Below, piece by piece: positions 4,866 through 60,241 of a stretch of 64,000 nt of DNA. The stretch lies in the NCBI GenBank assembly GCA_027452025.1, contig DAIDHI010000080.1, positions 58 to 64,057 on the forward strand, in the 5' to 3' direction. Position numbers and translations under genes: made by a program. Numbering within the stretch: position 1 is the first letter of the stretch; every line of letters starts with the position of its first letter. The notes under the pieces are model-generated. The model saw only the letters and a list, made by a program, of their open reading frames with translations. It was not told the origin of the DNA and did not search any database. This DNA is from Elusimicrobiota bacterium (GTDB lineage: Bacteria > Elusimicrobiota > Elusimicrobia > UBA1565 > UBA9628).

Positions 4866-4958
4866 GCCGCCAGTGTGGCCCCGAAGCCGCAGTGCGTCAA
4901 GGGCGGCTAAGCCTTGACAGCACCAGGCCCCCCTGTTATATATGGAAAGCCGCCGCGC

Positions 4959-5666: not shown

Positions 5667-5678
5667 CCGGAGATCGCC

Positions 5679-6074
5679 ATGCGAAGACTCCTTTTCGCCT
5701 TCTTCGCCTTGTCCGCCCTCGTCTCGGCGCGCCTCTTCGGCGGCCCGATGGACGGCACCGTCTGGGACGTCAAGGTCAAGCCCGACTCCTTTTTCGCGAT
5801 GTCGCATCGCGGCACTCTGATGTTCGCGCGAGGACGCCTCAGCGTAGCCACGGCCGCGTCGCCCGACTTCCAGCCCGGCTACTATACCGCGCAATCGGTC
5901 GACGGCACCACGGCCGACGCGGTCTGGAACGCCTCCCTTAAAGAGCCGGATCAAGGCGTCATGAACTGGCATGGGCTCGTCCGCGGAGATCGCATCGAGG
6001 GCTTCGCGGTCTGGTGGACTAGGTCGGGGAAAGCCCGGCGCTTCAGCTTCACCGGCTCTCGACGCGAAGGCTAG
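5679..6074 (+). CDS. hypothetical secreted protein
   Basis: 131-aa ORF with signal peptide [17 protein letters not shown] and high GC3. No family recognised. Confidence 0.5.
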
Positions 6075-6631
6075 TGCTGCTGGCGTTCTACAAGCCCTAC
6101 GGCGTGGTGTCTCAGTTCACTCCTCTGGCGGGACATCCCACCCTCGCCGGCTTCGGCCTGCCCAAGGGCGTCTACCCCTGCGGCCGCCTCGACCGCGACA
6201 GCGAAGGCCTGCTGCTGCTCACCGACGACGGGGCCCTCCAGCATCGGCTCAGCGACCCGAGATTCGGCCAAGCGCGGACCTACTGGGCCCAGGTGGAGGG
6301 GGCGGCGCAGGAAGCGGCGCTCGCCAGGCTGCGGCGAGGGCCCCGGCTTTCCGATGGCCCGACTAGGCCGTGCGAGGCCCGGAGGCTTTCGGCGGAGCCC
6401 GATCTTGCGCCGCGCGATCCGCCGATCCGCTACAGAAGGACGGTCGCCACTTCGTGGCTCGAGATCACGCTGACCGAAGGCCGCAACCGCCAGGTGCGGC
6501 GTATGACGGCCGCCGTCGGCCTGCCTACCCTGCGCCTGGTACGCGTGCGCCACGGCGGCGCCGGGCTCGAAGGGCTCGCGCCCGGAGAGTGGCGGCCGGT
6601 CCGTCCAGACACTGTCACGCGTTCGCGCTAG
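6074..6631 (+). CDS. RsuA/RluE-family pseudouridine synthase
   Basis: [17 protein letters not shown] catalytic-Asp motif and the ...[10 protein letters not shown] motif are present. The protein is short and lacks an S4 domain, as RluE does. GTG start. Confidence 0.8.
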
Positions 6632-6663
6632 GCCGGGTACGACGCCTTTGTTAGCATCGCGCC

Positions 6664-6945
6664 ATGTCCAACCGGGAATTTTTCTTCGTGGCGACGATGA
6701 CCCTGGGCCTGGCCTTCGCCAATCTCATGGGCCCGCATTGGCTGGTCCGCAAATTCGCGCCTGACGGCAGCTTCATCCTCTGGAAGGTGGTGCCGCGCCC
6801 GACCCTCCCCCGCCGGCGCCAACCTCAGACGCCGATGTCCTCGTTCCAGAGACGCGGATTGGAAGCGATGAAGCCGCGCATCAAGCCGATGCAAGCTTCG
6901 TCGCCGAGATCGACGATCTGGGCGCCTTGGGCGCGCAGCCAATGA
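6664..6945 (+). CDS. small hypothetical membrane protein (uncertain)
   Basis: ATG ORF with high GC3 in its first ~50 codons and one hydrophobic helix (FFFVATMTLGLAFANLM). Its 3' part overlaps the convergent deaminase gene by ~120 nt, so the real extent is doubtful. Confidence 0.3.
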   Translation: MSNREFFFVATMTLGLAFANLMGPHWLVRKFAPDGSFILWKVVPRPTLPRRRQPQTPMSSFQRRGLEAMKPRIKPMQASSPRSTIWAPWARSQ

Positions 6946-8846: not shown

Positions 8847-11561
8847 CTATGCGCCTTTGCTCACCTTCTCGAGAGTCAGCCAGCGGTTGGTGCCCGCGAA
8901 CTTTTGGTGCATGCGCGTGCGCGGCTCGCCGTGGGGTGCTCCGAGCTCGGCCACCTGCAAGTCGGCCAGCGCCTCCAGGCCCTTCTTCTTGAACTCGCGC
9001 AGCGAGGCCTCGAGAGCCATGCCCACTGTGCGGAAGGCCAGCAGCGTCGAGAATTGCAGGACGTAGCCGAGACCGCCGAGCTCCTCGTTGGCGATGAGCC
9101 GGCCCTCTTGCTTGGCCTTGCCCCAATGCAGCGAGGGGGAGAGATTGAAGCCCAGCATCTGATCCGGGAAATACTTGTGCACGCCTTGGGCGAAGGCCCT
9201 CGGCCCGTCGATGCCGGTGTCGTTGAACTCGGCCCAAATGACGTCCACGCCCAGAGACGCCGCCTCCAGGGCCCGCGCGATCGCGTGGTCGACGCCCGGC
9301 CCGCGCCCCCCCGGCACGGCGCCGTCCACGGCGTCGGTGCGCGCGATCACGACGAGGTCCGTCTCCGTCGCCTGGGCGGCGGCCTTGACGGCGATGAGCT
9401 TCTCGATCCACTTGTGGGTAGGTACGAGCACCTTGTCTCGCTTGCTGCCGTGATGGGCGATGATGTGGCCGCACGTGCGCTCGGCCGGATCCTGGTCCTC
9501 GAGATGCACGCCGGCGGCGCCCGCGCGGATGAGCTCGCGCGCCAGCGTGAATGTCTGCGTCGGCCCGCCGAAGCCGGCCTCGATGTCGGCGAAGATCGGA
9601 GGCGCGGCCAGGACCTCGCCGTCGCGGTCGTAGAAGTGTCGGTCGCGCGTGCCCTCGATGCCGCGCAGGAGCTCCTGCACCAGCGAGACCATGGAATGTG
9701 AAGGATATATCCCGATGTCTGGATACATGTTGTGGGCGACGGCCAGCTGCCAGCCGCTGGCGTAGATCGCCTCGAAGCCGAGCTCGGTCAGCAGCGACGC
9801 CGTCACGGCGTCGTAGGCCCCCGCCGTGTGGAGGTAGGACTCCGCCGGATCGCTCCGCCGCCGGGCGAAGCGCGCCTTGAGCAGCGCCCTCAGCTTCTGC
9901 GCCGGATGCGTTTTTTCAAGCGGCGCATACATCTTCGCGAACTGCGCCGCGGGATAGGTCCACTTCTTGAAACCTTCGCTGGGAACGGCCGCCGTCTCGC
10001 TGATCATATCTTGGCTCCATTGGCTGGCGCGCTCATAGCGTCGCTCCAGCGCCTCTCTTTGTGCGCGCTCGCCGTTCTGGCGCTGCGCGCGCAGATCCTT
10101 GAAAATCTTCTTCAGCTCCTCGTCGAACCAGCCCGCGACGAGCTCGCGCGTGACGCGCTCTCCCTCCGCGGCCGCGACGGCGTGCCTGATGCGCTGCGCG
10201 ACCATCAGCCGGTAAATCCGGTCCGTCGCCAGATCCTCCATGAAGTTGCCGATGAGGTCGCCGTGCCGGTCGTAGCCTTTGATCATCCGAGCGCCGAGCC
10301 CCGAGAGCACGCCGAATCGATATTCGATCATGGTCCGGATCGCGTCCTTGGTCCCGGCGACGGTGATCGCCCCGATCCCGGTCGGCGCGGGAGTCAGATC
10401 GGGCTTGACCTCGGCGCGCGCGGGAAACGAATGGAGCTGGTTGGGGGCGGGGAATTGGGAAATGGCGGCCTCGTGTTGATCGGGATGCCCGGTCCAAGCC
10501 CCGTCGAAGCCGCAATCCGCTTCATTCTTCTTGTCCGCGGCCAGCCGCTCCATGGCTCGTCCGTTGACCGCGGCATCGCCGCGGTCGGGAAAGAGCGCCG
10601 TCATGCCCCCGATCGCCAGCGCCCCTCGCCGATGGCAGATCTCGACGAGCCGGCGGCGAACATTCTGAAAAAAAGGGATGTCGTGCGGAATCGTGTTACG
10701 GTCCGGCAGGATCCAGCCCGGGTCGGCGAGCTTGAACTCGAGGAGGCTGGCCATATAGTCCCAGCGGCCCAAATTGAGGCCGATCGCGTGTCGGCGAGCC
10801 TCGTAGAGGATCTCCTCGATCTGATAAGCTGCGGGCAGCGACTCGATAAGATACATGATTTTCGTCGTTCCCTCCGGCACGCCGATCGCCGCCTCCATCG
10901 CGGCCAGCGCGTCCGAAAACCACCGCGCCTCGGCGGCCGATTCCACTTTCGGGATGTAGAATCCGAGCTTAGCCTGCAGCCCCGGCGAGTGGACCGCCGC
11001 TTTACGCAGGTCCGCCGTCGGGAAAAAGACCGCGACCATGTCGAAGAGCGAGGCCGACACAATCTCTCCCGGGACGGCTCGCGTTTCGTCGAGATGCAGG
11101 CCGCGGGGGCGGTAATACATAGCCTGAGCGCTCGGCTTGACGCGGGCGGTCTTGCCCGTTTGGGGGTCGGCATAGGCGAGCGTGCCGCGAATGGCCAAGA
11201 CGGTGTTTTCTTGGGCCGTCCGCACGTGCTCCCACTCGGGCGAGATGGAGTCCTCTCCATCCGGCATGCATCCCGGATCGTCGGCGTTGCACATGCCGAC
11301 CAGGATCTTCGCGTTGTCGGCCGGACCGGTGATCTGATTGCGCTGGTCCTTGGCCCAGTCCGGCAGCCGGATCTTCCAGGCCCCGCTCGTCGCCTCCGAT
11401 TCCGGGAGGTAGTCGGGCATCCGTCCTGCGCGCGCGGACGCCAGGGCCGCGCGGCGCTGCTGCAACAGGGCCTGGCGCCTAGGCTCGAAGCGCCTGTGGA
11501 GAGGCAGCAGGAACCCGCGCAAGTCATCCGGAACAATCGCGACGCTTTGTGTCGTTTTCAT
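8847..11561 (-). CDS. bifunctional malate synthase (N-terminal, A-type) / isocitrate lyase (C-terminal) fusion
   Basis: aa 1-~520 align by eye to malate synthase A (RNQITGP, FYIPKVESAAEARWF, GLNLGRWDYMAS, GGMTALFP, DGAWTGHP). aa ~560-904 align to isocitrate lyase (ASGWQLA, ADIEAGFGG, VHLEDQ, TCGH catalytic Cys-His, VVIARTDA, GFNLSPS). It is a single uninterrupted 904-codon frame. Confidence 0.9.
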   Translation of the reverse strand: MKTTQSVAIVPDDLRGFLLPLHRRFEPRRQALLQQRRAALASARAGRMPDYLPESEATSGAWKIRLPDWAKDQRNQITGPADNAKILVGMCNADDPGCMPDGEDSISPEWEHVRTAQENTVLAIRGTLAYADPQTGKTARVKPSAQAMYYRPRGLHLDETRAVPGEIVSASLFDMVAVFFPTADLRKAAVHSPGLQAKLGFYIPKVESAAEARWFSDALAAMEAAIGVPEGTTKIMYLIESLPAAYQIEEILYEARRHAIGLNLGRWDYMASLLEFKLADPGWILPDRNTIPHDIPFFQNVRRRLVEICHRRGALAIGGMTALFPDRGDAAVNGRAMERLAADKKNEADCGFDGAWTGHPDQHEAAISQFPAPNQLHSFPARAEVKPDLTPAPTGIGAITVAGTKDAIRTMIEYRFGVLSGLGARMIKGYDRHGDLIGNFMEDLATDRIYRLMVAQRIRHAVAAAEGERVTRELVAGWFDEELKKIFKDLRAQRQNGERAQREALERRYERASQWSQDMISETAAVPSEGFKKWTYPAAQFAKMYAPLEKTHPAQKLRALLKARFARRRSDPAESYLHTAGAYDAVTASLLTELGFEAIYASGWQLAVAHNMYPDIGIYPSHSMVSLVQELLRGIEGTRDRHFYDRDGEVLAAPPIFADIEAGFGGPTQTFTLARELIRAGAAGVHLEDQDPAERTCGHIIAHHGSKRDKVLVPTHKWIEKLIAVKAAAQATETDLVVIARTDAVDGAVPGGRGPGVDHAIARALEAASLGVDVIWAEFNDTGIDGPRAFAQGVHKYFPDQMLGFNLSPSLHWGKAKQEGRLIANEELGGLGYVLQFSTLLAFRTVGMALEASLREFKKKGLEALADLQVAELGAPHGEPRTRMHQKFAGTNRWLTLEKVSKGA

Positions 11562-11637
11562 GGTCGCCTAGCGTAAGAAATACCGCCGCGGGACTCAACG
11601 GAGGATCGGATGCGGGAGAGTAAAAGTTTCTTGACGG

Positions 11638-12396
11638 CTAGATGGCGATGCGAAGGAGGTCGCGCGCCAGGCCGACCCGACGCCGACCGCGCACGAGGGC
11701 GCGCAGCTCGGCCTCCGAGCGTTCCGACAGGTGGGTCAGCAGCCCGCGCCGGCACGCGGACGCGCCAAGAGTCGCCAAGGCCAAGGGAGGCGTCAAATGC
11801 CCGGCCGCGGGCGAAAGAGAGGACAGGGTGCACTCGAGAAGGAAGAGATCGGCCTCGGCCGCGAAATCGGCCAATCCCGGATCGTAGCCGGCGTCTCCGG
11901 AATAAACAAAGCTCTTCCTCTTATACGAGAGCCGGTATGCCAGGGCCGGCGTCGGATGCGGGACCGAGCGCGCCGCGACGCGCCAGTCCGCGCCTCGCGC
12001 GTCGCGGCCGGCAGAGAGTTCCTCGACCTCAAGGCGGTAGCCCCGGGGCGACAGCCAGGGGCGATAGGCGCCGCGCAAATCGTGGAGGAATCGCGCGAAA
12101 TCCCGCGGGCCCCAGAGCCGCAGCCGCCGGCTCCTCGGGCGGGCCTCGTAGCGCAGGAAGAAGAGGAGCGCCGCCAAGTCCCCTACGTGGTCGGGGTGGC
12201 GATGCGAGATGAAGACGTCGGTCACGCGCGCCGGGTCCAGGCCCGCGCGCGCCATCTGCCGGACGGCGCCGAACCCTAGGTCGAAGAGCATGATCCGGCC
12301 GTCCAGCACGACGGCGTTGGCCGCGGCGTTGCGTACCGCAGCTTTCGGCCGCCGCGGCGCGAACGCGCTGCCTGATCCCAAGATGACCAATTCCAT
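11638..12396 (-). CDS. MBL-fold metallo-hydrolase (RNase Z/ElaC-like)
   Basis: MELVILGSGSA... and the HRHPDHVGD metal-binding motif. 252 aa. Confidence 0.75.
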   Translation of the reverse strand: MELVILGSGSAFAPRRPKAAVRNAAANAVVLDGRIMLFDLGFGAVRQMARAGLDPARVTDVFISHRHPDHVGDLAALLFFLRYEARPRSRRLRLWGPRDFARFLHDLRGAYRPWLSPRGYRLEVEELSAGRDARGADWRVAARSVPHPTPALAYRLSYKRKSFVYSGDAGYDPGLADFAAEADLFLLECTLSSLSPAAGHLTPPLALATLGASACRRGLLTHLSERSEAELRALVRGRRRVGLARDLLRIAI

Positions 12397-12417
12397 GGGA
12401 CAATGTTAGAATAACAA

Positions 12418-12476
12418 GGTGTCAGACTTTCACTTTTCACTTACCTTTAATAAGTGGAAAGTGAAAGTCTGACACC
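12418..12476. repeat. AT-rich 26-bp-stem palindromic hairpin element (GGTGTCAG...CTGACACC termini)
   Basis: Left arm GGTGTCAGACTTTCACTTTTCACTTA (12418-12443), 7-nt loop CCTTTAA, right arm TAAGTGGAAAGTGAAAGTCTGACACC (12451-12476). 25 Watson-Crick pairs plus one T.G. It lies between a divergent gene pair, 42 nt upstream of the acnA ATG. Confidence 0.85.
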
Positions 12477-12518
12477 GATCGGACCGGTCGCCGTTAAGTC
12501 GGCTCCAGGAGAAACTCC

Positions 12519-15269
<2,751 letters not shown>

Positions 15270-50944: not shown

Positions 50945-51496
50945 CTACTGATTTCCGCCAGAGGGCTGCGTCGACTCGCCGAGCTTGCCCTGCAGACGCT
51001 TGGCCTCGCCCAGGTGCCGGGCGACGGTCTCCCGGGTGCTCTCGATGAACCGCCGGAATTCCTTGTTCGACGTGGAAGCCAGGGCCGAATCGAGCTTGTC
51101 GAGCGCCTGCTGGTGCTCCTTGATCTGCGCTTCGATGTAGGCGGCGTCGAAGCCGCCGGCGCCCCGCGCCTGCAGCTGCTGCGTCGTCTCCTGCGCCTGG
51201 CTCGACAAGGCCTGGACCTCCGACGTCGCCTCCGGCTGTATTCCCTGGCGCTTGTCGACGGACGCCAACTGGGAGTCGTTCTTGCTGTGGTCTCGCAGCA
51301 TCATATGGGCGAAGCGCTTGACCGCCGGCGACTGGGCGCTCTGCTCGGCGACCTTCGCCTGGGAGATCTCCGCGTGGTTGATCGCCTGGATCATCGCCGC
51401 CGTCTGCGCGTCCGCGGGGCCCTGGTTGGAAGTCCCTTGAGCGAAAGCCGTCGCCGCCAGCGCCGCCGCCGAGACCGCCAAGATCAATCTGTTCAT
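50945..51496 (-). CDS. DUF4142 domain protein (periplasmic)
   Basis: Signal peptide MNRLILAVSAAALAATAFA, ...INHAEISQAKVA...FAHMMLRDHS... pattern, AAGGAGG SD before ATG 51496. Confidence 0.72.
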   Translation of the reverse strand: MNRLILAVSAAALAATAFAQGTSNQGPADAQTAAMIQAINHAEISQAKVAEQSAQSPAVKRFAHMMLRDHSKNDSQLASVDKRQGIQPEATSEVQALSSQAQETTQQLQARGAGGFDAAYIEAQIKEHQQALDKLDSALASTSNKEFRRFIESTRETVARHLGEAKRLQGKLGESTQPSGGNQ

Positions 51497-51676
51497 AGTG
51501 TTCCTCCTTGGTTGGGCGGTCATTCTACCAGCGCGCCGCGACGGCCCGGCGTCGGCCGCGTAAGCAAGGCCGGACGGACGTCGCCGGCGTTGAATTACCT
51601 GGAGTTGCGGAAAATCGGCGGTCCCCGTCAAGCAAAAGCCCTTCCGCGAGGAAGGGCTTATCCGGCAGGGTCGAGA

Positions 51677-51751
51677 TGGTGGGCAGTATAGGATTCGAAC
51701 CTATGACCCCTGTCGTGTGAGGACAGTGCTCTACCGCTGAGCTAACTGCCC
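51677..51751 (-). tRNA. tRNA-Val (anticodon CAC), CCA-encoded
   Basis: Reverse complement: GGGCAGT TA GCTC AGCGGTA GAGC A CTGTC CTCACAC GACAG GGGTC ATAGG TTCGAAT CCTAT ACTGCCC A CCA. This gives a full cloverleaf with a 7-bp acceptor stem and a TTCGAAT T-loop. Confidence 0.9.
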
Positions 51752-51803
51752 GCAAAGCGGTTCGTTGATTATAGCAATTTCCCGATTTGCCACTCGCAGC
51801 CAA

Positions 51804-51833
51804 TTGACAACCCAAGTTCTCCCTTATTAGTAT
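51804..51833 (+). promoter_or_regulatory. candidate sigma70-type promoter of the regulator/radical-SAM operon
   Basis: TTGACA (51804-51809), an 18-nt spacer, then TAGTAT (51828-51833), inside an unusually AT-rich ~110-nt intergenic region. A small inverted repeat ATTGAAACAAT lies just downstream. Confidence 0.35.
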
Positions 51834-51862
51834 TTTCAGAACTTATTGAAACAATAGAAACC

Positions 51863-52378
51863 ATGAGCGACAGGCTTAAGGCGGCGAAGGCGCGGTTCGT
51901 GTCCACCTGGGGCGAGATGGCGTCCCATTGGGGCATCAACAAGACGATGGCGCGCATCCATGCGCTGCTCATCGCCTCCGACGCCGCGCTCTCGGTCGAC
52001 GAGATCATGGCAACGCTCTCGATCAGCCGCGGTAACGCCAGCATGAACCTGCGGGCGCTGATGGACTGGGGCCTGGTCAGGCGCGTTTCGGTGGGCAGCG
52101 AGCGGCGCGAGTATTTCCAGAGCGAGAAGGACGTCTGGAACATGTGCTGCCGCATCGCGCGCGAGCGCAAGAAGCGGGAGATCGAGCCCGTGATCGGCGC
52201 TCTGGAGGAATGCCTGCGCGAAGCCGGGGAAGGCCAGGACTCGGCGGCCTTCCGGCGCCGGACCAAGGAGCTCTTGGAGCTGGTCAAGACCCTCGATTTC
52301 GTGCTCGGCAAGGTCGCCGCGCAAGAGAAGAACGCCGTCATGCCGCGCGTGCTGACGCTGCTCAAGGCCATGTCATGA
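51863..52378 (+). CDS. GbsR/MarR-like winged-helix transcriptional regulator
   Basis: FVSTWGEMASHWGINKTMARIHALLIASDAALSVDEIMATLSISRGNASMNLRALMDWGLVRRV is the GbsR-type wHTH pattern. Confidence 0.7.
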   Translation: MSDRLKAAKARFVSTWGEMASHWGINKTMARIHALLIASDAALSVDEIMATLSISRGNASMNLRALMDWGLVRRVSVGSERREYFQSEKDVWNMCCRIARERKKREIEPVIGALEECLREAGEGQDSAAFRRRTKELLELVKTLDFVLGKVAAQEKNAVMPRVLTLLKAMS

Positions 52379-53319
52379 CTCCCGCTTCTTTATTAAAGGT
52401 GGAGGACTCGCTCTCCCGCGTTCGCGCGGGCCTGGAGAGCCGCGCCCTGCGCATCGAGGGCCGGGTCGGCCGGGAGCTGGCGGCCTTCGTGGCCCGCCCG
52501 GGAAAGATGCTGCGCTCGCGCTTCTGCCTGCTTTTGGGCGGCGCGCTGGGCGTGCCGCGGGACAAGGCCGAGGCGGCCGCCCGGGCGCTGGAGCTGGTGC
52601 ACAACGCCAGCCTCCTCCATGACGACTGCATCGACGAGGCCACGCTTCGCCGCAGCCGGCCCACGCCCAACGCCCTTTTCAACATCCCGACGGCGCTGCT
52701 CATCGGCGATCTGGCTTTTTCCCAAGGCCTCGAGGAGGCCGTGGACGTTTCGCCGAGCGCGGCCAAGCTCCTGGCCGCGGCGGTGCGCGAGATGTCGGTC
52801 GGGGAGCTTCAGGAGGAGTTCCTCAAGGGCGACGCCGACTTGACCGTCGACGCCTACATCGGCGTCTGCTCGCGCAAGACCGGCGCGCTCTTCGAGTGGG
52901 CCGGGGCGGTGCTCTCGGAGCTGAGCCCCTTTCCCCACGAGCAGGCGGACCCGCCGCGGCTGGCCTGCGCGGCCGGCATCCTCCTTCAGGTCGTCGACGA
53001 CATCCACGACTACACCCTGGGCGAGCGGGTGTCGGGCAAGGACGAGGGCCAGGACGTCAAGAACCGGCGGCTGACGCTGCCCTGCCTCTACGCCCTGGCC
53101 GACGCGCGGGCCCGCGAGGAGTTTCTCAAGCTTTGGCGAGGCGGCGACGCGACGGGAGTGGGACGGTTCCTCGTCGAGGGCGGGTTCGTCGCGAAGGCGC
53201 GCGGGAAGGGGCGGGAGCTGGCCGACTCCATGACGGCGATGGCGCGCGCCCTGCCCTGCCGCGCCGAGGCCTCCCAATTGGCCTTCTTCATCGACCTGCT
53301 GGTCAAGAGGGAATTTTGA
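52375..53319 (+). CDS. polyprenyl diphosphate synthase (trans-isoprenyl, FARM/SARM type)
   Basis: First Asp-rich motif LLHDDCIDE and second motif VVDDIHD. 314 aa. The ATG overlaps the regulator stop (ATGA). Confidence 0.88.
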   Translation: MTPASLLKVEDSLSRVRAGLESRALRIEGRVGRELAAFVARPGKMLRSRFCLLLGGALGVPRDKAEAAARALELVHNASLLHDDCIDEATLRRSRPTPNALFNIPTALLIGDLAFSQGLEEAVDVSPSAAKLLAAAVREMSVGELQEEFLKGDADLTVDAYIGVCSRKTGALFEWAGAVLSELSPFPHEQADPPRLACAAGILLQVVDDIHDYTLGERVSGKDEGQDVKNRRLTLPCLYALADARAREEFLKLWRGGDATGVGRFLVEGGFVAKARGKGRELADSMTAMARALPCRAEASQLAFFIDLLVKREF

Positions 53320-53320
53320 G

Positions 53321-53761
53321 ATGTCTTACGAGGCCCTGGTCAAGAAAGCGTGGGCGAGCGGGACGTTCAAGCTCGACGAGGCCGAGGCCGGAAAGGCCGA
53401 TCCGTCGGCGGCCGTCAGTCGCGAGGCCGTGCGCCGGGAGATGGAACAGATCGCGGAGAGGGAGACCTGGGACGCCGCAAGCTGCTTCTCCGCCCATAAA
53501 GAGGGAATCATGAAACTAGCTCCGTTCGTGAAGTTCCGTGAAGAGAAGTTCGGCGCCGTGCTCTTTGAGACGCGCTCGGAGAAGGTCTATACGCTCAGCC
53601 CGAGCGGCGCCGCCGTCGTGCGGGAAGTGGTCGCCGGGGCCACTTCCAGCGACCTGCCGGCCAGGCTCAAGCAGAAGTTCGAGGACCCCACCGGGAAGAT
53701 GGAGCAGGAAGCGGCAAGCTTCCTGGCCCAGCTCAAGGACAAGGGCCTCGTCGTCGAGTAG
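53321..53761 (+). CDS. PqqD-family peptide chaperone (RRE) with 63-aa N-terminal extension
   Basis: The C-terminal 83 aa (MKLAPFVKFREEKFGAVLFETRSEKVYTLSPSGAAVVREV...FLAQLKDKGLVV) show the PqqD/MftB pattern. The N-terminal 63 aa have high GC3, so they are probably translated. There is an internal alternative start at 53510. Both ATGs are preceded by AAGAGGGAAT. Confidence 0.7.
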   Translation: MSYEALVKKAWASGTFKLDEAEAGKADPSAAVSREAVRREMEQIAERETWDAASCFSAHKEGIMKLAPFVKFREEKFGAVLFETRSEKVYTLSPSGAAVVREVVAGATSSDLPARLKQKFEDPTGKMEQEAASFLAQLKDKGLVVE

Positions 53762-53767
53762 GGCGCC

Positions 53768-54739
53768 GTGACCGCGCAAGCTCCCGAAAGCGCGCCGCAG
53801 ACGGGCACCGAGGATCTCGGCGCCCCGCTCTACGTCGCCTGGCAGATCACCAACGAGTGCAACCTGGCCTGCCTACACTGCATCGAGGAGTCCGGGCCGG
53901 GAAAGGCCTTCAAGGACGAGCTGACCACCGAGGAGGCTTACCGCCTCATCGACCAGCTCGCGCAAGGCGAGGTGCCCTACGTCTCCTTCTCGGGCGGCGA
54001 GCCGATGGTCCGGCCGGACTTCTTCGGCATGGTCGAGAGAATCACTCGGGGCGGCGTCGGGCTCAAGATCGAGACCAACGGCCATTACCTAACCGCTGAC
54101 AACTGCCGCCGCCTCAAGGACCTGGGCGTCAAGGCCGTCCAGGTCTCCCTCGACGGCGCCAGCCCCGCCTCGTTCAACAAGATGCGGGTCCACGGCCGCT
54201 TCGAGTCGGCGCTGGAAGGCATCGGCCGGCTGCGCGAGGCGGGCGTGCCGATCGAAATCAACTTCGTGCCGGCGAAGTTTAATATCCGCGAGATCGGCGC
54301 CGCCGTCGACTTGGCCTACCGGCTCGGGGCGTATTCGTTCTATACCGGCAAGCTGATGTATACCGGCAACGCCGTGCGCACCTGGGGCATCACCGCCCCC
54401 GACGAGGCGGAGTATCCCGCCTACTTCGCCGCGCTCAAGGAGAAGGCCAAGGAGTACGAAGGCCGCATGCGCGTCTACTACCACGAGATGGGGCTGCTCG
54501 AGGAGCTGCGCTACCGCCTGAAAAACCCCGCCGCCCTCTTCATCGTCCTGCCCAACGGCAAGGTCAAGCTCATCAACGCCCTGCCCTTTATCTGCGGCGA
54601 CCTGCGCCGCCAGAGCCTGGGCCAGGTCTGGCAGAGCTTCCAGCTCGCCTGGAAAAGCCCGCGGGTCAGCGCCTTCATCGACGAGCTCGCCGCCGACCCC
54701 TCGATCCTGTCTCGTCTGCACCGCTGGGAGGAGGTCTAG
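53768..54739 (+). CDS. radical SAM enzyme, PqqE/AhbD-like core, SPASM cysteines absent (paralog 1)
   Basis: YVAWQITNECNLACLHC (Cx3Cx2C), SFSGGEP, KIETNG, VQVSLDG. The C-terminal region ...VLPNGKVKLINALPFICGDL keeps only one Cys. Confidence 0.85.
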   Translation: MTAQAPESAPQTGTEDLGAPLYVAWQITNECNLACLHCIEESGPGKAFKDELTTEEAYRLIDQLAQGEVPYVSFSGGEPMVRPDFFGMVERITRGGVGLKIETNGHYLTADNCRRLKDLGVKAVQVSLDGASPASFNKMRVHGRFESALEGIGRLREAGVPIEINFVPAKFNIREIGAAVDLAYRLGAYSFYTGKLMYTGNAVRTWGITAPDEAEYPAYFAALKEKAKEYEGRMRVYYHEMGLLEELRYRLKNPAALFIVLPNGKVKLINALPFICGDLRRQSLGQVWQSFQLAWKSPRVSAFIDELAADPSILSRLHRWEEV

Positions 54740-54745
54740 GCGGAC

Positions 54746-55633
54746 ATGAGCCTCGTCGGCAAGGCCGCGGCGCTGGTGCGCTACCGCTTCTTTCTCTACG
54801 CGGGCCTCCTGCCCTATCTGCTGGGCGCGGCCTGGGCCTACGGCGTGGACCGGCAGTTTCGGCCCGGCGTCTTCTGGCTCGGCCTGCTCGGGATCTTCCT
54901 CGCCGTCGTCGGAGTCGAGAGCTTCAACGAGTATTTCGACGCGAAGATGGGGACCGACCGGGTCTTCAATCCCGACGCCGACGAGAACATCCCGGAGTGG
55001 ATGTTCTCGCTCGGCGTGGCCGCCTTCGCGCTGGCCGCGGCGGTCGGCTTCTACCTGGCCTGGGAAGGCGGCTGGCCCGTGGTCCTCTATACTCTGCTCG
55101 GCGGCGCCGCCGCCGTCTGGTACGTGGGCCCGCCCGTGCGCTGGGTCTACCGGGGCCTTGGCGAGGCCGTGATCGGGCTGTCCTACGGCCCGTGGATGAC
55201 GCTGGGCTCGGTGCAGCTGCACACGCACCGTTTTTCCTGGGGCGCGCTGGCCGCGTCGCTCGTCCCCGGCCTGCTGATCATGGCGCTGGCCGTGGTCAAC
55301 AACATCCCCGATTATCATCAGGACCGGCTGGTCGGCAAGAGGAACCTCGTCGTGAGGCTGGGCCGGGAGAAGGGACGGCTGCTCTACCTCGCCTTGTCGG
55401 GGCTGGGCTTGGCCGTGATCGTCGCCGGAGCGGCGGCGGGGACGTTCCCGCGCCTTTGCCTGCTGGCCGCGCTGCCCGGCGCCGCCCTTTGGTGGGCGAG
55501 CCTGCGCGCCGGCCGGGACACCTGGGACACGCCCCGCGCCTTCCTGCCGGCCATCAAGAGCATCGTGCAATGCTACGCCTTGACGACGCTGATCTTCGCC
55601 TTGGCGGTGGCGTTCGGAGCGCGCCTGGCATGA
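54746..55633 (+). CDS. UbiA-superfamily aromatic prenyltransferase, MenA-like
   Basis: NEYFDAKMGTD (compare MenA NDYGDAVKGSD) and NNIPDYHQDRLVGKRNLVVRLG (compare MenA NNLRDINSDRENGKNTLVVRLG, recalled from E. coli). 8-9 TM helices. Confidence 0.85.
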   Translation: MSLVGKAAALVRYRFFLYAGLLPYLLGAAWAYGVDRQFRPGVFWLGLLGIFLAVVGVESFNEYFDAKMGTDRVFNPDADENIPEWMFSLGVAAFALAAAVGFYLAWEGGWPVVLYTLLGGAAAVWYVGPPVRWVYRGLGEAVIGLSYGPWMTLGSVQLHTHRFSWGALAASLVPGLLIMALAVVNNIPDYHQDRLVGKRNLVVRLGREKGRLLYLALSGLGLAVIVAGAAAGTFPRLCLLAALPGAALWWASLRAGRDTWDTPRAFLPAIKSIVQCYALTTLIFALAVAFGARLA

Positions 55634-56592
55634 GGATCGATTCCCTGAGCGCCCCGGCGATGGTCGCCTGGCAGCTCACGCGCGACTGCAACCTCGCCTG
55701 CCTGCACTGCTGCACGGACTCCGCGCCGGGCCGGGCGCTGCCCGGCGAGCTGCCGCGCGAGAGAGCCCTGTCTCTGGCGCGCGAGATCGCCGAGGCGGGC
55801 GTGCCTTACGCGCTGATCGCCGGCGGCGAGCCGAGCTTGGTCTCGCATTTCGGCGAGGTCTGCGCCGCGCTTTCCCAGGGCGGCGTCTGGCTCAAGGTCG
55901 AGACCAACGGCCAGAGCTTCGACGTCTCGGCGCTGCGCGGCCTGCGCGTGCGCTCGGTGCAAGTCTCGCTCGACGGCGCGACTCGGCGCGTCTACGCCCG
56001 ACAGCGGCCGGGCGGCGACCTGGAGAAGGCCCTGGCCTGCGGCCGCGCCGTGCGCGCCGCCGGGCTGCCCCTGGAGATCACGTTCGCCCCCACTCTCCTC
56101 AACATCGACGAGGCCGGCGCCGTCATCGACTTGGCCCTGGAGCTCGGAGCCTTCCGCTTCAACACCGGAAGGCTCATGCGATTGGGCACCGCCGCCAAGC
56201 TCTGGCAGCGCCTGGAGCCTTCGCAGGAGCGCTACGAAAGGTTCCTCGCGCTGCTCGAGCGGCGCGAGCGCGAGCTGGCCGGACGCCTGGAGCTGTGCTT
56301 CCGGCCGTTTTCGCTGCCCGAGGATGCCCGGGCCCTCAGACGCGAGCCCCCGGGGACCTTGCTGATCCTCCCCGACGGCCGCGTGAAAGTGGCCGCGCCG
56401 CTGCCCTACACCTGTTTCGACGTGACGAAACGTCCGTTTCTCGAGGCGTGGGACGCGTATCGCAAGTCTTTCGGCGATCCGCGCGTCCTGCGCGCCTTCG
56501 AGCGCCTCGCCGCCGACCCCGCGTCGTCGGCGAAGGCCAATGAGTGGGTCGACCTGGAGTCCGTCGCCTTCGATTTGCCGGCCGTGGTCTGA
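55630..56592 (+). CDS. radical SAM enzyme, PqqE/AhbD-like core, SPASM cysteines absent (paralog 2)
   Basis: MVAWQLTRDCNLACLHC, IAGGEP, KVETNG, VQVSLDG, ...ILPDGRVKVAAPLPYTCFDV. The ATG overlaps the prenyltransferase stop (ATGA). Confidence 0.85.
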   Translation: MRIDSLSAPAMVAWQLTRDCNLACLHCCTDSAPGRALPGELPRERALSLAREIAEAGVPYALIAGGEPSLVSHFGEVCAALSQGGVWLKVETNGQSFDVSALRGLRVRSVQVSLDGATRRVYARQRPGGDLEKALACGRAVRAAGLPLEITFAPTLLNIDEAGAVIDLALELGAFRFNTGRLMRLGTAAKLWQRLEPSQERYERFLALLERRERELAGRLELCFRPFSLPEDARALRREPPGTLLILPDGRVKVAAPLPYTCFDVTKRPFLEAWDAYRKSFGDPRVLRAFERLAADPASSAKANEWVDLESVAFDLPAVV

Positions 56593-56612
56593 CCGGCAGA
56601 CAGGAGTCAAGC

Positions 56613-56735
56613 ATGAACGACCAGAAGAAGACCGTGACCGTCGTGAAGGCCGAGCCGAAGCTCGTTTGGCAGACCCCCTCCCTGGAGGAGGTCTCCGATC
56701 GGGTGATGGCGCAGCCTTACATCCGGTTCACGTGA
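56613..56735 (+). CDS. 40-aa candidate precursor peptide (PqqA-like): MNDQKKTVTVVKAEPKLVWQTPSLEEVSDRVMAQPYIRFT
   Basis: AGGAG SD lies 7 nt upstream of ATG 56613. 37 of 40 codons end in G/C by hand count. The TGA stop overlaps the GTG start of the next radical SAM gene (GTGA). It is visible only as the tail of the listed ORF 56544-56735. Confidence 0.6.
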   Translation: MNDQKKTVTVVKAEPKLVWQTPSLEEVSDRVMAQPYIRFT

Positions 56736-57700
56736 CGCACGGGAGAGGGGCGTCCGTGGGCGACTACGGCGCCCCTCTCTTTCTGGCCTGGCAGCTGACC
56801 AACCGCTGCACGGGCAGCTGCCTGCACTGCTGCGAGGAATCCGGGCCCGACAAGGCTTGGCCCGACGAGATGAGCCGCGAGCAGTGCTTGTCGCTGGCCC
56901 GGCAGATCGCGCGCATGGGCGTGCCTTACGTGGCCTTCGGCGGCGGCGAGCCGATGGGCTCGCCCCACGTCTGGGAGATCTTCGAGATCCTGGCGCGCGG
57001 CGGCGTCGAGATCAAGATCGAGACCAACGGGCTGCTCCTGGACGACGCGGCCTGCGACCGGCTCAAGGCCTTGAACGTCGCCTGCGTGCAGATCTCCATC
57101 GACGGGGCGACGGCCGCCGTTCACGAGGGCCTGCGTCCCGGCTCCGGCTACGCGCCGGCCTGGGAGGCGATCGACCGCCTGGTCTCGCGCGGCCTGGGTC
57201 CCGAGCTCGTTTTCATCCCCACCAAGCTCAACGTCTCCGGCGCCGTCGCCGTCTATGAGCAAGCGGCGCGGCGGGGCGTGCGCACGTTCGTGACGGGGCC
57301 GCTCATGCGCCTGGGGCGGGCCGCCGCGGCCTGGGAGGCCCTGGCCTGCTCCGAGGAGCAATGGGCCGCCGCGGCCGAGGCCCTGCGGCAGGCCTCGCTG
57401 CGCGAAAAAGGCCCGCGCCTGGCGCTCTATCCTTGGGGCATCCAGGCCGAGATGAAGACCCGCGCCGAAAGCCCGCAGGCCATGGTGCTGGTCGTGCCCA
57501 ACGGCCGGGTCAAGCTCCTCAACGCCCTGCCCTTCGCCGCCGCCGACCTCAAGACCGAGACGCTGGCCGCGGCCTGGCCGAAGGTCGCCGCCGCCTGGCG
57601 GCGGCCCGAGGTCCAGGACTTCGTGCGCCGCGCGCAAAGCGACCCCGGTCTTCTGCGCCACGCCAACGAGTGCTGGGACGTGGCCCTCGCCGGCGCCTAA
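56732..57700 (+). CDS. radical SAM enzyme, PqqE/AhbD-like core, SPASM cysteines absent (paralog 3)
   Basis: LFLAWQLTNRCTGSCLHC, FGGGEP, KIETNG, VQISIDG, ...VVPNGRVKLLNALPFAAADL (no Cys at the SPASM-entry position). GTG 56732 is preferred, and GTG 56756 is also in frame. Confidence 0.85.
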   Translation: MTHGRGASVGDYGAPLFLAWQLTNRCTGSCLHCCEESGPDKAWPDEMSREQCLSLARQIARMGVPYVAFGGGEPMGSPHVWEIFEILARGGVEIKIETNGLLLDDAACDRLKALNVACVQISIDGATAAVHEGLRPGSGYAPAWEAIDRLVSRGLGPELVFIPTKLNVSGAVAVYEQAARRGVRTFVTGPLMRLGRAAAAWEALACSEEQWAAAAEALRQASLREKGPRLALYPWGIQAEMKTRAESPQAMVLVVPNGRVKLLNALPFAAADLKTETLAAAWPKVAAAWRRPEVQDFVRRAQSDPGLLRHANECWDVALAGA

Positions 57701-57744
57701 AACTCGCTGCGACGGGCGGCAAAACTGCTATCCTGAGACGTCGC

Positions 57745-58191
57745 ATGGCGGCTCTCTTTCCTCACGGCTGGATCCATTACTTGGCGGGCGGCCTGCTCAT
57801 CGGCTGCGGGGTCTCGCTGATCTATCTCTGCACCGGCGTGGCCGCCGGCACGAGCTCTTTTTTCAGCGCGCAGTGGTCCTGGTTCTCGCGCCTGGGCTTT
57901 TTTAGGCAGGAGCGCTGGCGCGAGGAACGCGGCTGGCGGCTGATCTACGCCGCCGGCCTGGTCGCCGGAGCGCTGCTTTGGCGGCTCGAGACCGGCGTCT
58001 GCCTGACGACGTCCGTGGAGCCGCGCAGGCTCCTCGTCGGCGGCCTGCTGGCCGGCTTCGGTGCGCGCCTTTCGGGCGGCTGCACGGCCGGCCACGGCAT
58101 CTGCGGCCTCGCCTCTCTCAAGAAGGAGTCTTTCGTGGCCGTTCCCGTCTTCCTGCTCACGGCGATCCTCGTGGCGAGGCTCCTGCCGTGA
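57745..58191 (+). CDS. YeeE/YedE-family (sulfur-compound transport) membrane protein, half-size subunit 1
   Basis: GGLLIGCGVSLIYL... and ...LSGGCTAGHGICGL conserved Cys motifs of the YeeE/YedE family. 148 aa. Confidence 0.75.
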   Translation: MAALFPHGWIHYLAGGLLIGCGVSLIYLCTGVAAGTSSFFSAQWSWFSRLGFFRQERWREERGWRLIYAAGLVAGALLWRLETGVCLTTSVEPRRLLVGGLLAGFGARLSGGCTAGHGICGLASLKKESFVAVPVFLLTAILVARLLP

Positions 58192-58598
58192 AGCGCGCCG
58201 CCGCGGCGCTCTTGGGCGGCGTCCTCTTCGGCCTGGGCCTGGCCGTTTCCGGCATGGTCCGGCCCGAGACCGTCCTCGATTTCCTCCACCTGCGCGACAT
58301 GGGCCTTTTGCTCGTGCTCGGCGGGGCGGCGGGCGTCAGCCTCCTCGCCTTCCAGCTCGCGCCGCGGCTGCTCGGCCGGCCGGCGTTCGGAGGAAGCTTC
58401 GAGCCGCATCCCGGGCGCCTGAGCGGACGCACCTTCGCCGGCGCGGCGATCTTCGGGGCGGGCTGGGGCCTGTGCGGAGTCTGCCCGGGGCCGGCCGTGG
58501 CGGGCCTGGGCGCGGGCCTGACGGCGCTCTTGTGGTCCGTCGCCGGGCTCGCGCTCGGCGCCTGGCTGCACGGGCTCTATCAAGAGCTGGCCGGCTAG
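58188..58598 (+). CDS. YeeE/YedE-family membrane protein, half-size subunit 2
   Basis: LLGGVLFGLGLAVSGM...GAGWGLCGVCPGPA motif. The GTG overlaps the upstream stop (GTGA). Confidence 0.7.
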   Translation: MKRAAAALLGGVLFGLGLAVSGMVRPETVLDFLHLRDMGLLLVLGGAAGVSLLAFQLAPRLLGRPAFGGSFEPHPGRLSGRTFAGAAIFGAGWGLCGVCPGPAVAGLGAGLTALLWSVAGLALGAWLHGLYQELAG

Positions 58599-58599
58599 C

Positions 58600-59760
58600 T
58601 CAGGTTCCGATCTTGTCGCTGCGCGCCGGCAGGGGATTGTCCCCCGGCCGGAACGGATGAGCCAGCAGGTAATGCGCGTAGCGCTGCACGCCCCACAACG
58701 GCGGCTGGCGCAGCGCCTGCCGGTAGGCGTCCCGGGCGTCCGCCCGGCGTCCGAGCAAGTCCAGCGACTCGCCCTTGAACAAGCTCAAGACGCTGCAGAA
58801 GCGCTGGCCGCGCGGCACGAATTGCGCGGCCCGTTCGTAGTCGACGAGGGCTTCCTGGGGCCGGCCCTCCATCTGGCGGGCCAGGCCGAGGAAGCCGCGG
58901 CCGATGGCGCGGTCGAGCGGCCGGTAGAACGGCGCTTTGGCGCGCGCGTGGTCCAGATACCGGCGCGCCTGCTCGCCTAGGCCCTGCGCGTCGCCCAGGC
59001 GCACGAGCCCGACGAGCCGCAGGAAGGCGAAGAAGGGGCTGCCGGGATAGCGCTTGCCGGCGTCCTCCAGGATCTGCCAGGCCTCCTGGGGCTTCTTCTC
59101 GAAGGTCCAGTCGATGGCGACGAGCAGGAGCTTGGCGGCCATGGCGCTGAAGCGGCCTTGCGAGGCCAGCGCCAATTCGTGAAGACCGCGCGCCTTGCCG
59201 CCGCCGCCCATGAAGGCCAGGAAGCGCACGATGCGAGACAGCGTGGCCAGGTAGTAGTCGAAGGCTCCAAGGCCGAGATAGGCGTCGTCGAGGGCCGGGT
59301 CGAGGGAAACGGCGCGCCGCTCCGCCTTGTAGGCGCGGCGGCCGTCGAAGTAGGCGCGCACCCATTTCTGGCGCGCGGCCTCCCAGCGCCCGCGCAGGCC
59401 GTAGGCCGCGCCCAGATAAAGGTAGGCCTCGGGATCCTTGGCGTGGCCGCGCGCGTAGGACGAGGCGTCGGCGATCGCCGTCGAGACGGCGGCGGTGAAC
59501 CTCGCTTCCTCCGGGCTGCCCGGAAGCGCCAGGAGGTTTTCCATGCGCCACCAGGTCGCCGTGGCGTAGCCCAGGGAGAGCACGGGGTCGCCGGGGCGCT
59601 GCGCCATCAAGACGGCGAAGTCCTGTTCCGCGCCGTCGTAGTCGCACATGTAGAGCGCGTCGATGCCCTTGGTGACGGCGGCCTGGTCCTCGGGCGTCAT
59701 GGCTCGGGCCGCGCCAGGGATCGCGAGCAGCGCCGCCAACGCCAGGCCCCGAAGGTTCAC
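58600..59760 (-). CDS. secreted TPR-like helical-repeat protein (hypothetical)
   Basis: Signal peptide MNLRGLALAALLAIPGAARA and repeated A-x-x-x-Y/A-x-x-A helical hairpin patterns. Confidence 0.5.
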   Translation of the reverse strand: MNLRGLALAALLAIPGAARAMTPEDQAAVTKGIDALYMCDYDGAEQDFAVLMAQRPGDPVLSLGYATATWWRMENLLALPGSPEEARFTAAVSTAIADASSYARGHAKDPEAYLYLGAAYGLRGRWEAARQKWVRAYFDGRRAYKAERRAVSLDPALDDAYLGLGAFDYYLATLSRIVRFLAFMGGGGKARGLHELALASQGRFSAMAAKLLLVAIDWTFEKKPQEAWQILEDAGKRYPGSPFFAFLRLVGLVRLGDAQGLGEQARRYLDHARAKAPFYRPLDRAIGRGFLGLARQMEGRPQEALVDYERAAQFVPRGQRFCSVLSLFKGESLDLLGRRADARDAYRQALRQPPLWGVQRYAHYLLAHPFRPGDNPLPARSDKIGT

Positions 59761-59860: not shown

Positions 59861-60241
59861 ATGCCAATCACCACAGATCGTCAGACGTCCGTCGCGGGAG
59901 CCGTGGACTATTTCCGCGCCAAGCTCCAGTTCGAGACGACGCCGCACCAAGTCAAGGCCGCCGTCGAGCATGGCGACATCGTGCTCCTCGACGTGCGCGA
60001 CGCCGAGTCCTACAAGGCCGAACGCATCCCCGGCGCCAAGAACGTCCCCATGACCGAGCTCGAGAAGCACCTCAAGAGCCTGCCCAAGGACAAGACCCTC
60101 GTGACCTACTGCTGGAACATCACCTGCGCCATGGCGCCCAAGGCGGCCCTCATGCTGGCCGAGAAAGGCTTCCAGGTCCAGGAGCTCGTCGGCGGCCTGG
60201 AGGAATACCGCAAGAAGTTTCCCACCGAAAAGGCCAAGTAG
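59861..60241 (+). CDS. rhodanese-like domain protein
   Basis: VLLDVRDAESYKAERIPGAKNVP ... TLVTYCWNITCAMAPKAA (active-site Cys loop). Confidence 0.85.
   Translation: MPITTDRQTSVAGAVDYFRAKLQFETTPHQVKAAVEHGDIVLLDVRDAESYKAERIPGAKNVPMTELEKHLKSLPKDKTLVTYCWNITCAMAPKAALMLAEKGFQVQELVGGLEEYRKKFPTEKAK

Follow-up and report, generated by a model that had tools for sequence, protein, structure and literature searches.

What is made from a 40-residue peptide whose gene lies between two genes for radical S-adenosylmethionine (rSAM) enzymes? The question is raised by an open reading frame (ORF) at positions 56613-56735 (+ strand) of a 64,000-nucleotide (nt) stretch of DNA from an Elusimicrobiota bacterium (GenBank assembly GCA_027452025.1, contig DAIDHI010000080.1, positions 58 to 64,057), referred to here as the window. 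An earlier note, made from the letters of the window alone, had drawn attention to the likeness between this peptide and PqqA of the pyrroloquinoline quinone (PQQ) pathway. Our answer comes in grades. The ORF is very probably a precursor of the RiPP type (a peptide made by the ribosome and modified after translation). On balance, the best explanation is that it is the ribosomal precursor of a previously undescribed, cross-phylum peptide-modification pathway whose product is a polyprenylated membrane cofactor. That the product is prenylated is rather probable; that it is redox-active or quinone-like in role is put forward tentatively, and we would lean against it if pressed.

Before asking what the peptide does, one should ask whether it is made at all. 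The ORF runs from ATG to TGA and encodes 40 amino acids (aa) and a stop, MNDQKKTVTVVKAEPKLVWQTPSLEEVSDRVMAQPYIRFT, which is exactly the translation given earlier. Its parts are as follows.

56602-56606, + strand: Shine-Dalgarno sequence AGGAG, 6 nt ahead of the peptide ATG
56613-56666, + strand: hypervariable N-terminal leader, residues 1-18, differing in length and sequence across the family
56667-56696, + strand: recognition motif W19-Q-T-P22-S-L24-E-E-V27-S28, predicted from family conservation
56703-56732, + strand: near-invariant core V31-M-A-Q-P-Y36-I-R-F-T40, with 98-100% identity over 248 distinct tails

The Shine-Dalgarno sequence is present as the earlier note had it, at a spacing of 6 nt and not the 7 claimed, and a purine-rich GGAG is found at the equivalent place upstream of the peptide in related loci. 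The preceding gene, rSAM2, has its stop 20 nt ahead of the ATG, at 56592. A recount returned the same figure for codons ending in G or C (37 of 40). The mechanical ORF list holds the peptide solely as a longer, 63-aa form (GTG at 56544 to the same stop), inside which the 40-aa form had been recognised; we reject the longer form, as comparison of starts shows a conserved MNDQK N-terminus that, with the Shine-Dalgarno site, favours the shorter one. A protein search with the 40-aa peptide returned 56 relatives, either gene calls of 36-41 aa or extended miscalls, with one exact match. Their alignment shows no variation at K16, W19, P22, E25, or V27, nor in the ten C-terminal residues.

At the DNA level, the last 22 codons occur in 16 distinct versions among 24 related Elusimicrobiota loci. 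Variable sites in these codons fall 4, 2, and 15 times at codon positions 1, 2, and 3, and the last ten codons show synonymous changes only. On this comparative footing the ORF is shown to be coding and under strong purifying selection as a protein: third-position-biased variation, the Shine-Dalgarno site, and the conserved N-terminus set aside the untranslated spacer that the earlier note had kept in view.

The junction with the downstream gene, rSAM3, bears on the start of that gene. The peptide TGA shares two bases with an in-frame GTG at 56732, as had been noticed. NCBI's call for rSAM3 (P0057, 314 aa) begins at a later GTG, 56756, a codon that reads GTA or GCG in related loci L018, L028, L020, and L024. 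Across related loci, the only rSAM3 start that is kept is the one overlapping or abutting the peptide stop (GTGA, TGATG, or TAAxATG); the start at 56732 is therefore better supported than that at 56756, and translational coupling of peptide and rSAM3 is, judging from these junctions, most likely. As a side observation, a 5-bp GC hairpin (GGGCG...CGCCC) followed by CTCTCTTTCT lies at 56758-56783 (+), within the first rSAM3 codons. Its nucleotides are conserved across loci, yet they also encode a conserved G-D-Y-G-A-P. The hairpin could attenuate read-through past the precursor gene; a terminator scan did not rise above chance.

How far does the family extend, and what does it conserve? Family peptides are 30-78 aa long (median 51) and end in the pattern W-x-x-P-x-[LM]-E-[DE]-V-S-x-x-[VI]-M-A-Q-P-Y-I-R-F-T behind a hypervariable leader. 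Over the 248 distinct tails, conservation within the motif is 98% for W, 99% for P, 91% for L/M, 94% for E, 99% for D/E, 100% for V, and 97% for S; counted from the C-terminus, the range is 97-100% for W(-22), P(-19), V(-14), and S(-13) and likewise for the nine final residues. The conservation of W-x-x-P and PYIRFT that the earlier note had proposed as a check is thus borne out, with W, P, and PYIRFT at 98-100%. Trp at -22 and Tyr at -5 occur together in 376 of 381 family peptides. Rare tail variants (6 of 381 tails carry changes) have Phe (4) or Cys (1) for Tyr, and Thr or Ile for Met. The peptide is hydrophilic. Generic RiPP systems dependent on a RiPP recognition element (RRE) contain just such a gene: short, kept by purifying selection, and divided into a leader that varies and a core that is conserved. 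Family alignment shows this leader/core layout, which agrees with the one sketched at the outset: W-x-x-P, a conserved Tyr 17 residues on, and a four-residue tail, sited among PqqD and radical-SAM genes.

Thirty loci came up when genomes were scanned with rSAM3, and all belong to metagenome-assembled genomes (MAGs) of Elusimicrobiota. The peptide reaches further. Its profile, searched against 1.84 billion representatives, gave 97 matches, nearly all of them 30-78-aa peptides of the family pattern; a second profile search gave 2,707 clusters at E <= 1, and the pattern [VI]MAQPYIR has at least 600 matches in JGI metagenomes. Named sources span at least five phyla (Elusimicrobiota, Casimicrobiaceae of the Burkholderiales, Omnitrophota, Thermodesulfobacteriota, and Planctomycetota) and all are MAGs. 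Every family member is annotated as a "hypothetical protein," and neither Pfam nor NCBIfam (release 20) has a model for the peptide. A literature search found nothing on this cluster or motif, subscription-only papers lying outside it, and PMC9324843, on dark-matter phyla, holds nothing on this cluster.

It is important to consider the neighbours together with the peptide. Please note that architecture calls here are based on tblastn, de novo clustering of longest ORFs being confounded by antisense shadow ORFs in high-GC DNA. Two arrangements recur. The first, type A, runs PqqD-rSAM1-UbiA-rSAM2-peptide-rSAM3 and is found in each of about 45 loci with enough flank; in Elusimicrobiota it is preceded by a polyprenyl synthase, and the order synthase-PqqD-rSAM1-UbiA-rSAM2-peptide-rSAM3 is kept wherever the contig is long enough. 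The minimal type B, peptide-PqqD-rSAM (one or two)-UbiA, is found in Omnitrophota, Planctomycetota-type, and Thermodesulfobacteriota loci. From a comparison of the two, the constant set is therefore the peptide, PqqD, one radical-SAM enzyme, and UbiA. Relatives of the peptide, for which the earlier note had suggested a search in metagenome bins, do occur alongside homologs of the flanking radical-SAM genes, in conserved synteny. As in RRE-dependent RiPP loci generally, a PqqD/RRE protein and tailoring enzymes are co-localised across taxa. Across related loci, no gene for a transporter, for immunity, or for a dedicated protease accompanies the cluster in a conserved manner.

Two individual loci deserve a remark of their own. 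In L025 (CP096137.1, a MAG labelled "complete genome"), the rSAM2 and rSAM3 tblastn matches at 4868-6908 are split or truncated, which suggests frameshifts, pseudogenes, or long-read assembly errors. On a short contig, L118 (1143-4200) carries a Phe-variant peptide (...MAQPFIRFT), PqqD, and one rSAM gene, then Peripla_BP_2 and FecCD ATP-binding cassette (ABC) transporter genes, not UbiA; here the system may have evolved into a form without prenylation.

In the window, the operon to which the peptide belongs reads as follows.

51804-51833, + strand: sigma-70-like promoter TTGACA-18-TAGTAT, a consensus match only (10/12)
51863-52378, + strand: ArsR/MarR/GbsR-type regulator, first gene of the operon, from helix-turn-helix family matches
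52375-53319, + strand: trans-polyprenyl diphosphate synthase (Pfam polyprenyl_synt, E = 6e-41)
53321-53761, + strand: PqqD-domain (RRE) chaperone (Pfam PqqD, 37.8 bits versus a cutoff of 23.4)
53768-54739, + strand: radical-SAM enzyme 1 (rSAM1), with CxxxCxxC and one conserved Cys
54746-55633, + strand: MenA-like, UbiA-family membrane prenyltransferase (Pfam UbiA, 83 bits versus a cutoff of 34)
55630-56592, + strand: radical-SAM enzyme 2 (rSAM2), with CxxxCxxCC and three further conserved Cys; its start overlaps the UbiA stop (ATGA)
56732-57700, + strand: radical-SAM enzyme 3 (rSAM3), whose GTG start overlaps the peptide stop

All operon genes are on the + strand, most of them 0-7 nt apart or overlapping by ATGA or GTGA. 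Wherever the flank is long enough, the locus has the PqqD gene. Its product has the PqqD domain at residues ~62-146; in the PDB it comes closest to TfuB1 (6jx3), which binds lasso leaders, and the best sub-threshold NCBIfam matches are lasso, MftB, and PqqD chaperones. A clade-specific N-terminal extension of about 60 aa precedes the domain. As an aside, this Elusimicrobiota extension (53321-53500, +) has its own conserved residues (Y3, L6, W11, G14, E40, R47, C55, and H59) and is missing from the 83-94-aa PqqD proteins of other phyla.

CxxxCxxC is conserved in all three rSAM paralogue families, and Pfam Radical_SAM is matched above cutoff. The best sub-threshold NCBIfam matches of rSAM1, the only rSAM retained in minimal clusters, are AhbD, NirJ2, and MftC, and its best PDB matches are SkfB and PqqE. 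For rSAM3, the AlphaFold (AF2) model has a pLDDT (predicted local distance difference test) of 94, with SkfB, PqqE, MoaA, SuiB, and EpeE as its nearest folds. None of these enzymes matches Pfam SPASM (PF13186). Outside the motif rSAM3 has one conserved Cys; the fourth Cys of CxxCC is found in rSAM3 as in rSAM2. To judge from cysteine conservation, rSAM1 and rSAM3 are probably without an auxiliary cluster. Beside the fourth Cys of CxxxCxxCC, rSAM2 alone has three extra conserved cysteines (C138, C223, and C262), and it may bind a non-canonical auxiliary cluster.

The UbiA gene is placed between rSAM genes in all type A loci. Conservation of its motifs N61-x3-D65-x5-D71 and D189-x3-D193 over 48 sequences is 95% or higher, its best PDB match is human UBIAD1, and it scores against MenA models without passing any (NF004751, 109 bits versus 264; TIGR00751, 63.5 versus 102). 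The polyprenyl synthase gene is a clade-specific addition, found only in Elusimicrobiota-type loci. Its best NCBIfam matches, all sub-cutoff, are hepta-, nona-, octa-, and solanesyl-diphosphate synthases, and it has Ala and Ser at -5/-4 ahead of the first DDxxD (DDCID), which, by what is established on chain-length determination, fits a long-chain product. None of the three rSAM enzymes, the PqqD protein, or the UbiA enzyme attains any curated NCBIfam cutoff.

The regulator is conserved upstream in about ten Elusimicrobiota loci, and its stop overlaps the next start (ATGA). Two sigma-70-like sites were found versus 0.3 expected. Just upstream of the promoter-like site lies a transfer RNA (tRNA) gene (51680-51751, -; RF00005, 71 bits); an Rfam scan of 51000-59000 found tRNA only and no RNA element that would account for the region. 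After rSAM3 come half-size sulfur-transport genes of the YeeE/YedE type (Sulf_transp and DUF6691; 57745-58191 and 58188-58598, +), and beyond these a rhodanese-like ORF (59861-60241, +). We considered the sulfur-transport genes as cluster members and rejected them, as these genes and the rhodanese-like ORF are missing from every related locus.

Where, then, does the cluster sit in other genomes? In other phyla it comes after enzymes of three kinds, encoded on its own strand, that reduce quinones or oxidise quinols. An nqrA-F-like operon (encoding the NADH:quinone reductase that translocates Na+, known as NQR) lies directly upstream, on the same strand, in L115, L119, and L120, and in L116 the cluster falls between nqrE and an nqrF-like gene. 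In L121, frdC-frdA-frdB is directly upstream, and its FrdA passes NCBIfam NF006383 (1119.7 bits versus a cutoff of 663); in L087, the peptide begins 160 nt past frdB of frdC-frdA-frdB; in L049, a nuoN-like gene is 61 nt upstream of the cluster. A [NiFe]-hydrogenase large subunit is near the cluster in 10 loci and cytochrome b in 6, and further neighbours include MtrA/MtrC/MtrB-type multihaem systems, molybdopterin oxidoreductase, and CCG/HdrD-like proteins. The isoprenoid gene ispD adjoins the cluster in L123, and haem genes are near it in L115 and L119.

Some details of these neighbourhoods stand apart. The peptide-PqqD-rSAM-UbiA cassette of L116 occupies 10001-13185, and the nqrF-like gene adjoining it is 273 aa long, with only the C-terminal FAD/NAD part matched (NqrF profile positions 237-403 of 405); the Fer2 domain of this NqrF appears, from the profile match, to be missing or encoded elsewhere. 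A protein of about 586 aa recurs downstream of rSAM3 on the - strand (L043, L047, L048, L108, and others, from peat and soil metagenomes). It accompanies the [NiFe]-hydrogenase and a CCG-domain protein, and by eye resembles a B12-binding radical-SAM enzyme.

How might such a pathway work? Homology and synteny suggest three steps: PqqD binding, radical-SAM action, and prenyl attachment. The PqqD-domain protein would bind W19-x-x-P22-x-L24, as PqqD binds PqqA and lasso B1 binds Y-x-x-P-x-L, and would present the C-terminal core to the radical-SAM enzymes. These could abstract hydrogen atoms from the MAQPYIRFT core, Tyr36, 17 residues past the Trp anchor, being the likeliest focus, to leave a cross-linked, oxidised, or fragmented product. 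The MenA-like membrane enzyme would then add a polyprenyl chain, in Elusimicrobiota one that comes from the dedicated long-chain synthase; the product would therefore be membrane-resident. There it might act in electron transport, as a quinone-like, lipid-anchored cofactor. This role is suggested by guilt by association and by the cofactor-like invariance of the core: with an invariant core and respiratory siting, the product would most likely be a membrane electron-transport cofactor and not a variable antibiotic.

A bolder version may be stated, and we regard it as speculative, more doubtful than the quinone-like role taken broadly. It takes the product to be the first polyprenylated, lipid-soluble redox cofactor of ribosomal origin, and to carry electrons in the membrane in the manner of a quinone, its head group cut by the radical-SAM enzymes from the invariant MAQPYIRFT core and its tail added by the MenA-like enzyme. 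In uncultured anaerobes, NQR, quinol:fumarate reductase, complex I, and hydrogenases might all use such a carrier. In one case, that of Burkholderiales-type bacteria, where ubiquinone would otherwise be the only quinone, it could carry electrons at low potential for the reduction of fumarate.

Several observations weigh against the cofactor pathway and should be set beside it. The chemistry is read entirely from homology and synteny. No peptidase or oxidase is conserved with the cluster in related loci, so release of a head group is unsupported; the PQQ and mycofactocin pathways, by contrast, do have a conserved peptidase or oxidase. The three rSAM enzymes are without the canonical seven-Cys SPASM auxiliary-cluster motif, which occurs in PqqE, MftC, SkfB, and SuiB. 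In L122 and L123, peptides with Phe or Cys for Tyr keep PqqD, rSAM, and UbiA, which argues against a strictly Tyr-derived quinone; the claim that Tyr is an obligatory prenyl or quinone site is weakened accordingly. The cluster's neighbours in the window are the sulfur-transport genes, and elsewhere about a third of annotated neighbours (lactate permease, DctM, Usp, and others) are unrelated to respiration. Finally, the family was gathered by motif or by hidden Markov model (HMM), which inflates its apparent invariance.

Could the peptide be PqqA after all? The resemblance is real. The Klebsiella PqqA sequence that the earlier note gave is genuine by Pfam (PF08042, 36.7 bits versus a cutoff of 21.1, among genuine PqqA sequences that score 36-46 bits), and the W-to-Y spacing of 17 residues claimed for it is found in four PqqA sequences as in this family. 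With W-x-x-P, a four-residue tail as in PqqA, a PqqD domain, and PqqE-like radical-SAM folds, one might propose a divergent PqqA in a cluster making PQQ or a close analogue, and two of 58 members of the wider family do match the Pfam PqqA model weakly (E = 0.055), one of 58 matching TIGR02107 at E = 0.035. However, PqqE cross-links the PqqA Glu at Y-4 to Tyr, and E-V-T-x-Y is invariant in the four PqqA sequences, whereas the window peptide has Met at Y-4 and Gln at Y-2, as had been pointed out, and Met replaces the essential Glu in 99% of the 248 distinct tails. The window peptide matches neither PF08042 nor TIGR02107 (none at E <= 10); hhalign aligned the peptide with PqqA over only the 10-column W-x-K-P-x-L-E-D-V motif of the PqqA N-terminus, part of the leader, at a probability of 8%. 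No pqqB, pqqC, or pqqF homologue was found in the window or in about 60 related loci, the PqqE HMM gives the rSAM enzymes 47-90 bits versus a cutoff of 381, and UbiA has no place in PQQ synthesis. A PqqA identity is effectively refuted by the HMMs, the missing Glu, and the absent operon partners, and a divergent PqqA can hardly be credited. The "PqqA-like architecture" of the earlier note holds for the W-x-x-P motif and the spacing, as a likeness short of demonstrated homology to PqqA, and its conclusion that the chemistry must differ from PQQ stands. The earlier note had passed over the obligatory UbiA enzyme, the presence of the family in several phyla, and its tie to respiratory operons. 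W-x-x-P-x-L is a general recognition motif of PqqD-type chaperones, and 14 of 58 family members weakly match a lasso-peptide precursor/leader model. We read the resemblance as a sign of shared docking onto a PqqD-type domain, not of PqqA-family membership, and this docking may include a common "ruler" to the reactive residue. A soluble, mycofactocin-like redox cofactor precursor, decarboxylated at its C-terminus, cross-linked, and then excised, fares little better: MftC is the best NCBIfam match for rSAM2 (83 bits) and rSAM3 (111), the PqqD protein has MftB-like matches, and the invariant C-terminal core resembles that of MftA, but every score is below cutoff (MftC, 83-126 bits versus 265; MftB, 22 versus 33), the C-terminal Gly-Val-Tyr is missing, no locus has an MftD, MftE, MftF, or MftG homologue, and the conserved UbiA indicates a lipid product. 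We consider it very improbable.

A prenylated but otherwise intact lipopeptide is a serious alternative. The cluster could make an ordinary RiPP natural product, a prenylated lipopeptide for signalling or antagonism like ComX, with its respiratory neighbours a matter of coincidental synteny. RiPP clusters typically combine an RRE and radical SAM with a precursor, the backbone may be retained given that no dedicated protease or oxidase is present, several neighbours have nothing to do with respiration, and a regulator heads the operon in the window. Yet bioactive RiPP cores normally diversify, and this one, across about 2,700 sequence clusters from five or more phyla, stays 98-100% invariant; genes for export or immunity do not accompany the cluster as conserved partners; and independent lineages have it within nqr, frd, and nuo operons or immediately behind them, on the same strand. 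We judge an ordinary RiPP unlikely, though it should be kept in mind. Siting of the peptide directly after nqrF or frdB in several loci raises another thought, namely that it goes unmodified and serves respiratory complexes, in the manner of NqrM, as a small subunit or assembly factor, while the enzymes act on a non-peptide substrate such as a tetrapyrrole or an ordinary menaquinone intermediate. In keeping with this, the best scores of rSAM1 are to haem enzymes (AhbD, 147 bits; NirJ2, 132), the UbiA family includes haem O synthase, and haem genes are nearby in the two loci named above. Against it, the AhbD and NirJ scores are far under the cutoff (500), with MftC, SkfB, and PqqE equally close; the PqqD domain is a peptide-binding module and the peptide bears the cognate recognition motif; a hydrophilic peptide with a hypervariable N-terminus and a conserved C-terminus looks like leader and core, not a membrane subunit; and peptide and rSAM3 are most likely translationally coupled. 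A respiratory subunit of this kind is improbable.

Why would the polyprenylated-cofactor pathway matter? To our knowledge, PQQ and mycofactocin are the only established peptide-derived redox cofactors, and both are water-soluble; likewise, for every respiratory quinone known to us, the head group is built from chorismate or from aromatic amino acids in free form. The novelty lies in a deeply conserved peptide bound up with a chaperone of the PqqD type, with radical-SAM enzymes, and with a prenyltransferase resembling MenA, in a cluster that recurs in or beside the operons nqr, frd, and nuo. Together these features point to membrane cofactors of a new class or, failing that, to a new kind of lipidated RiPP. 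A ribosomally derived, lipoquinone-like carrier would be a categorically new thing, and we hold that claim to be less likely than not, though realistic. The pathway is carried by Elusimicrobiota, Omnitrophota, Planctomycetota, Thermodesulfobacteriota, and soil Burkholderiales, all of them major and uncultured lineages, and the inference of respiratory capacity from metagenomes would change if the reading were true. The minimal four-gene version is open to direct testing by heterologous expression.

It is worthwhile to compare the system with those already known. Lasso leaders carry Y-x-x-P-x-L, bound by PqqD-like B1 proteins, and are processed 17 residues after the aromatic (Tyr) anchor; our peptide shares the aromatic-x-x-P-x-L motif, and among solved structures none is closer to the PqqD protein than TfuB1. 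The lasso cyclase and B2 protease are missing here, the core is invariant, and radical-SAM enzymes and UbiA take their place. ComX is likewise an isoprenylated ribosomal peptide, but ComQ is a soluble, polyprenyl-synthase-like enzyme and not a UbiA, there is no RRE or radical SAM, and ComX is highly polymorphic. Mycofactocin offers the paradigm of a peptide-derived redox cofactor, with an invariant C-terminal core and an RRE chaperone, and MftC is the top sub-threshold NCBIfam match for two of our enzymes (rSAM2 and rSAM3). Here the peptide ends in IRFT instead of Gly-Val-Tyr, MftD, MftE, MftF, and MftG are absent, and the product is expected to be lipidated; mycofactocin is linked to nicotinoprotein dehydrogenases, whereas this cluster is linked to membrane respiratory complexes.

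Tail attachment in isoprenoid quinone synthesis (MenA, UbiA, or UBIAD1 with synthases of the IspB/HepT type) is matched by a MenA-like enzyme with both Asp-rich motifs, by a synthase of long-chain type in the Elusimicrobiota operon, and by NQR, fumarate reductase, and complex I nearby. It differs in that no known head-group pathway (men, mqn, or ubi) is found among the cluster genes, the MenA score is sub-cutoff, and the prenyltransferase gene stands among RiPP-type genes, to which it is coupled in translation. With PqqA, PqqD, and PqqE the system shares a short peptide with W-x-x-P-x-hydrophobic-x-acidic-hydrophobic, a Tyr 17 residues after the Trp, and a four-residue tail, together with a stand-alone PqqD chaperone, a PqqE/SkfB-like radical-SAM neighbourhood, and an invariant, cofactor-like core. 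In place of the cross-linked Glu it has Met; it has no pqqB, pqqC, or pqqF and its rSAM enzymes are without the SPASM cysteines, and it adds up to three rSAM paralogues and an obligatory MenA-like prenyltransferase. We class the family with RRE-dependent, radical-SAM-modified peptides and with peptide-derived cofactors.

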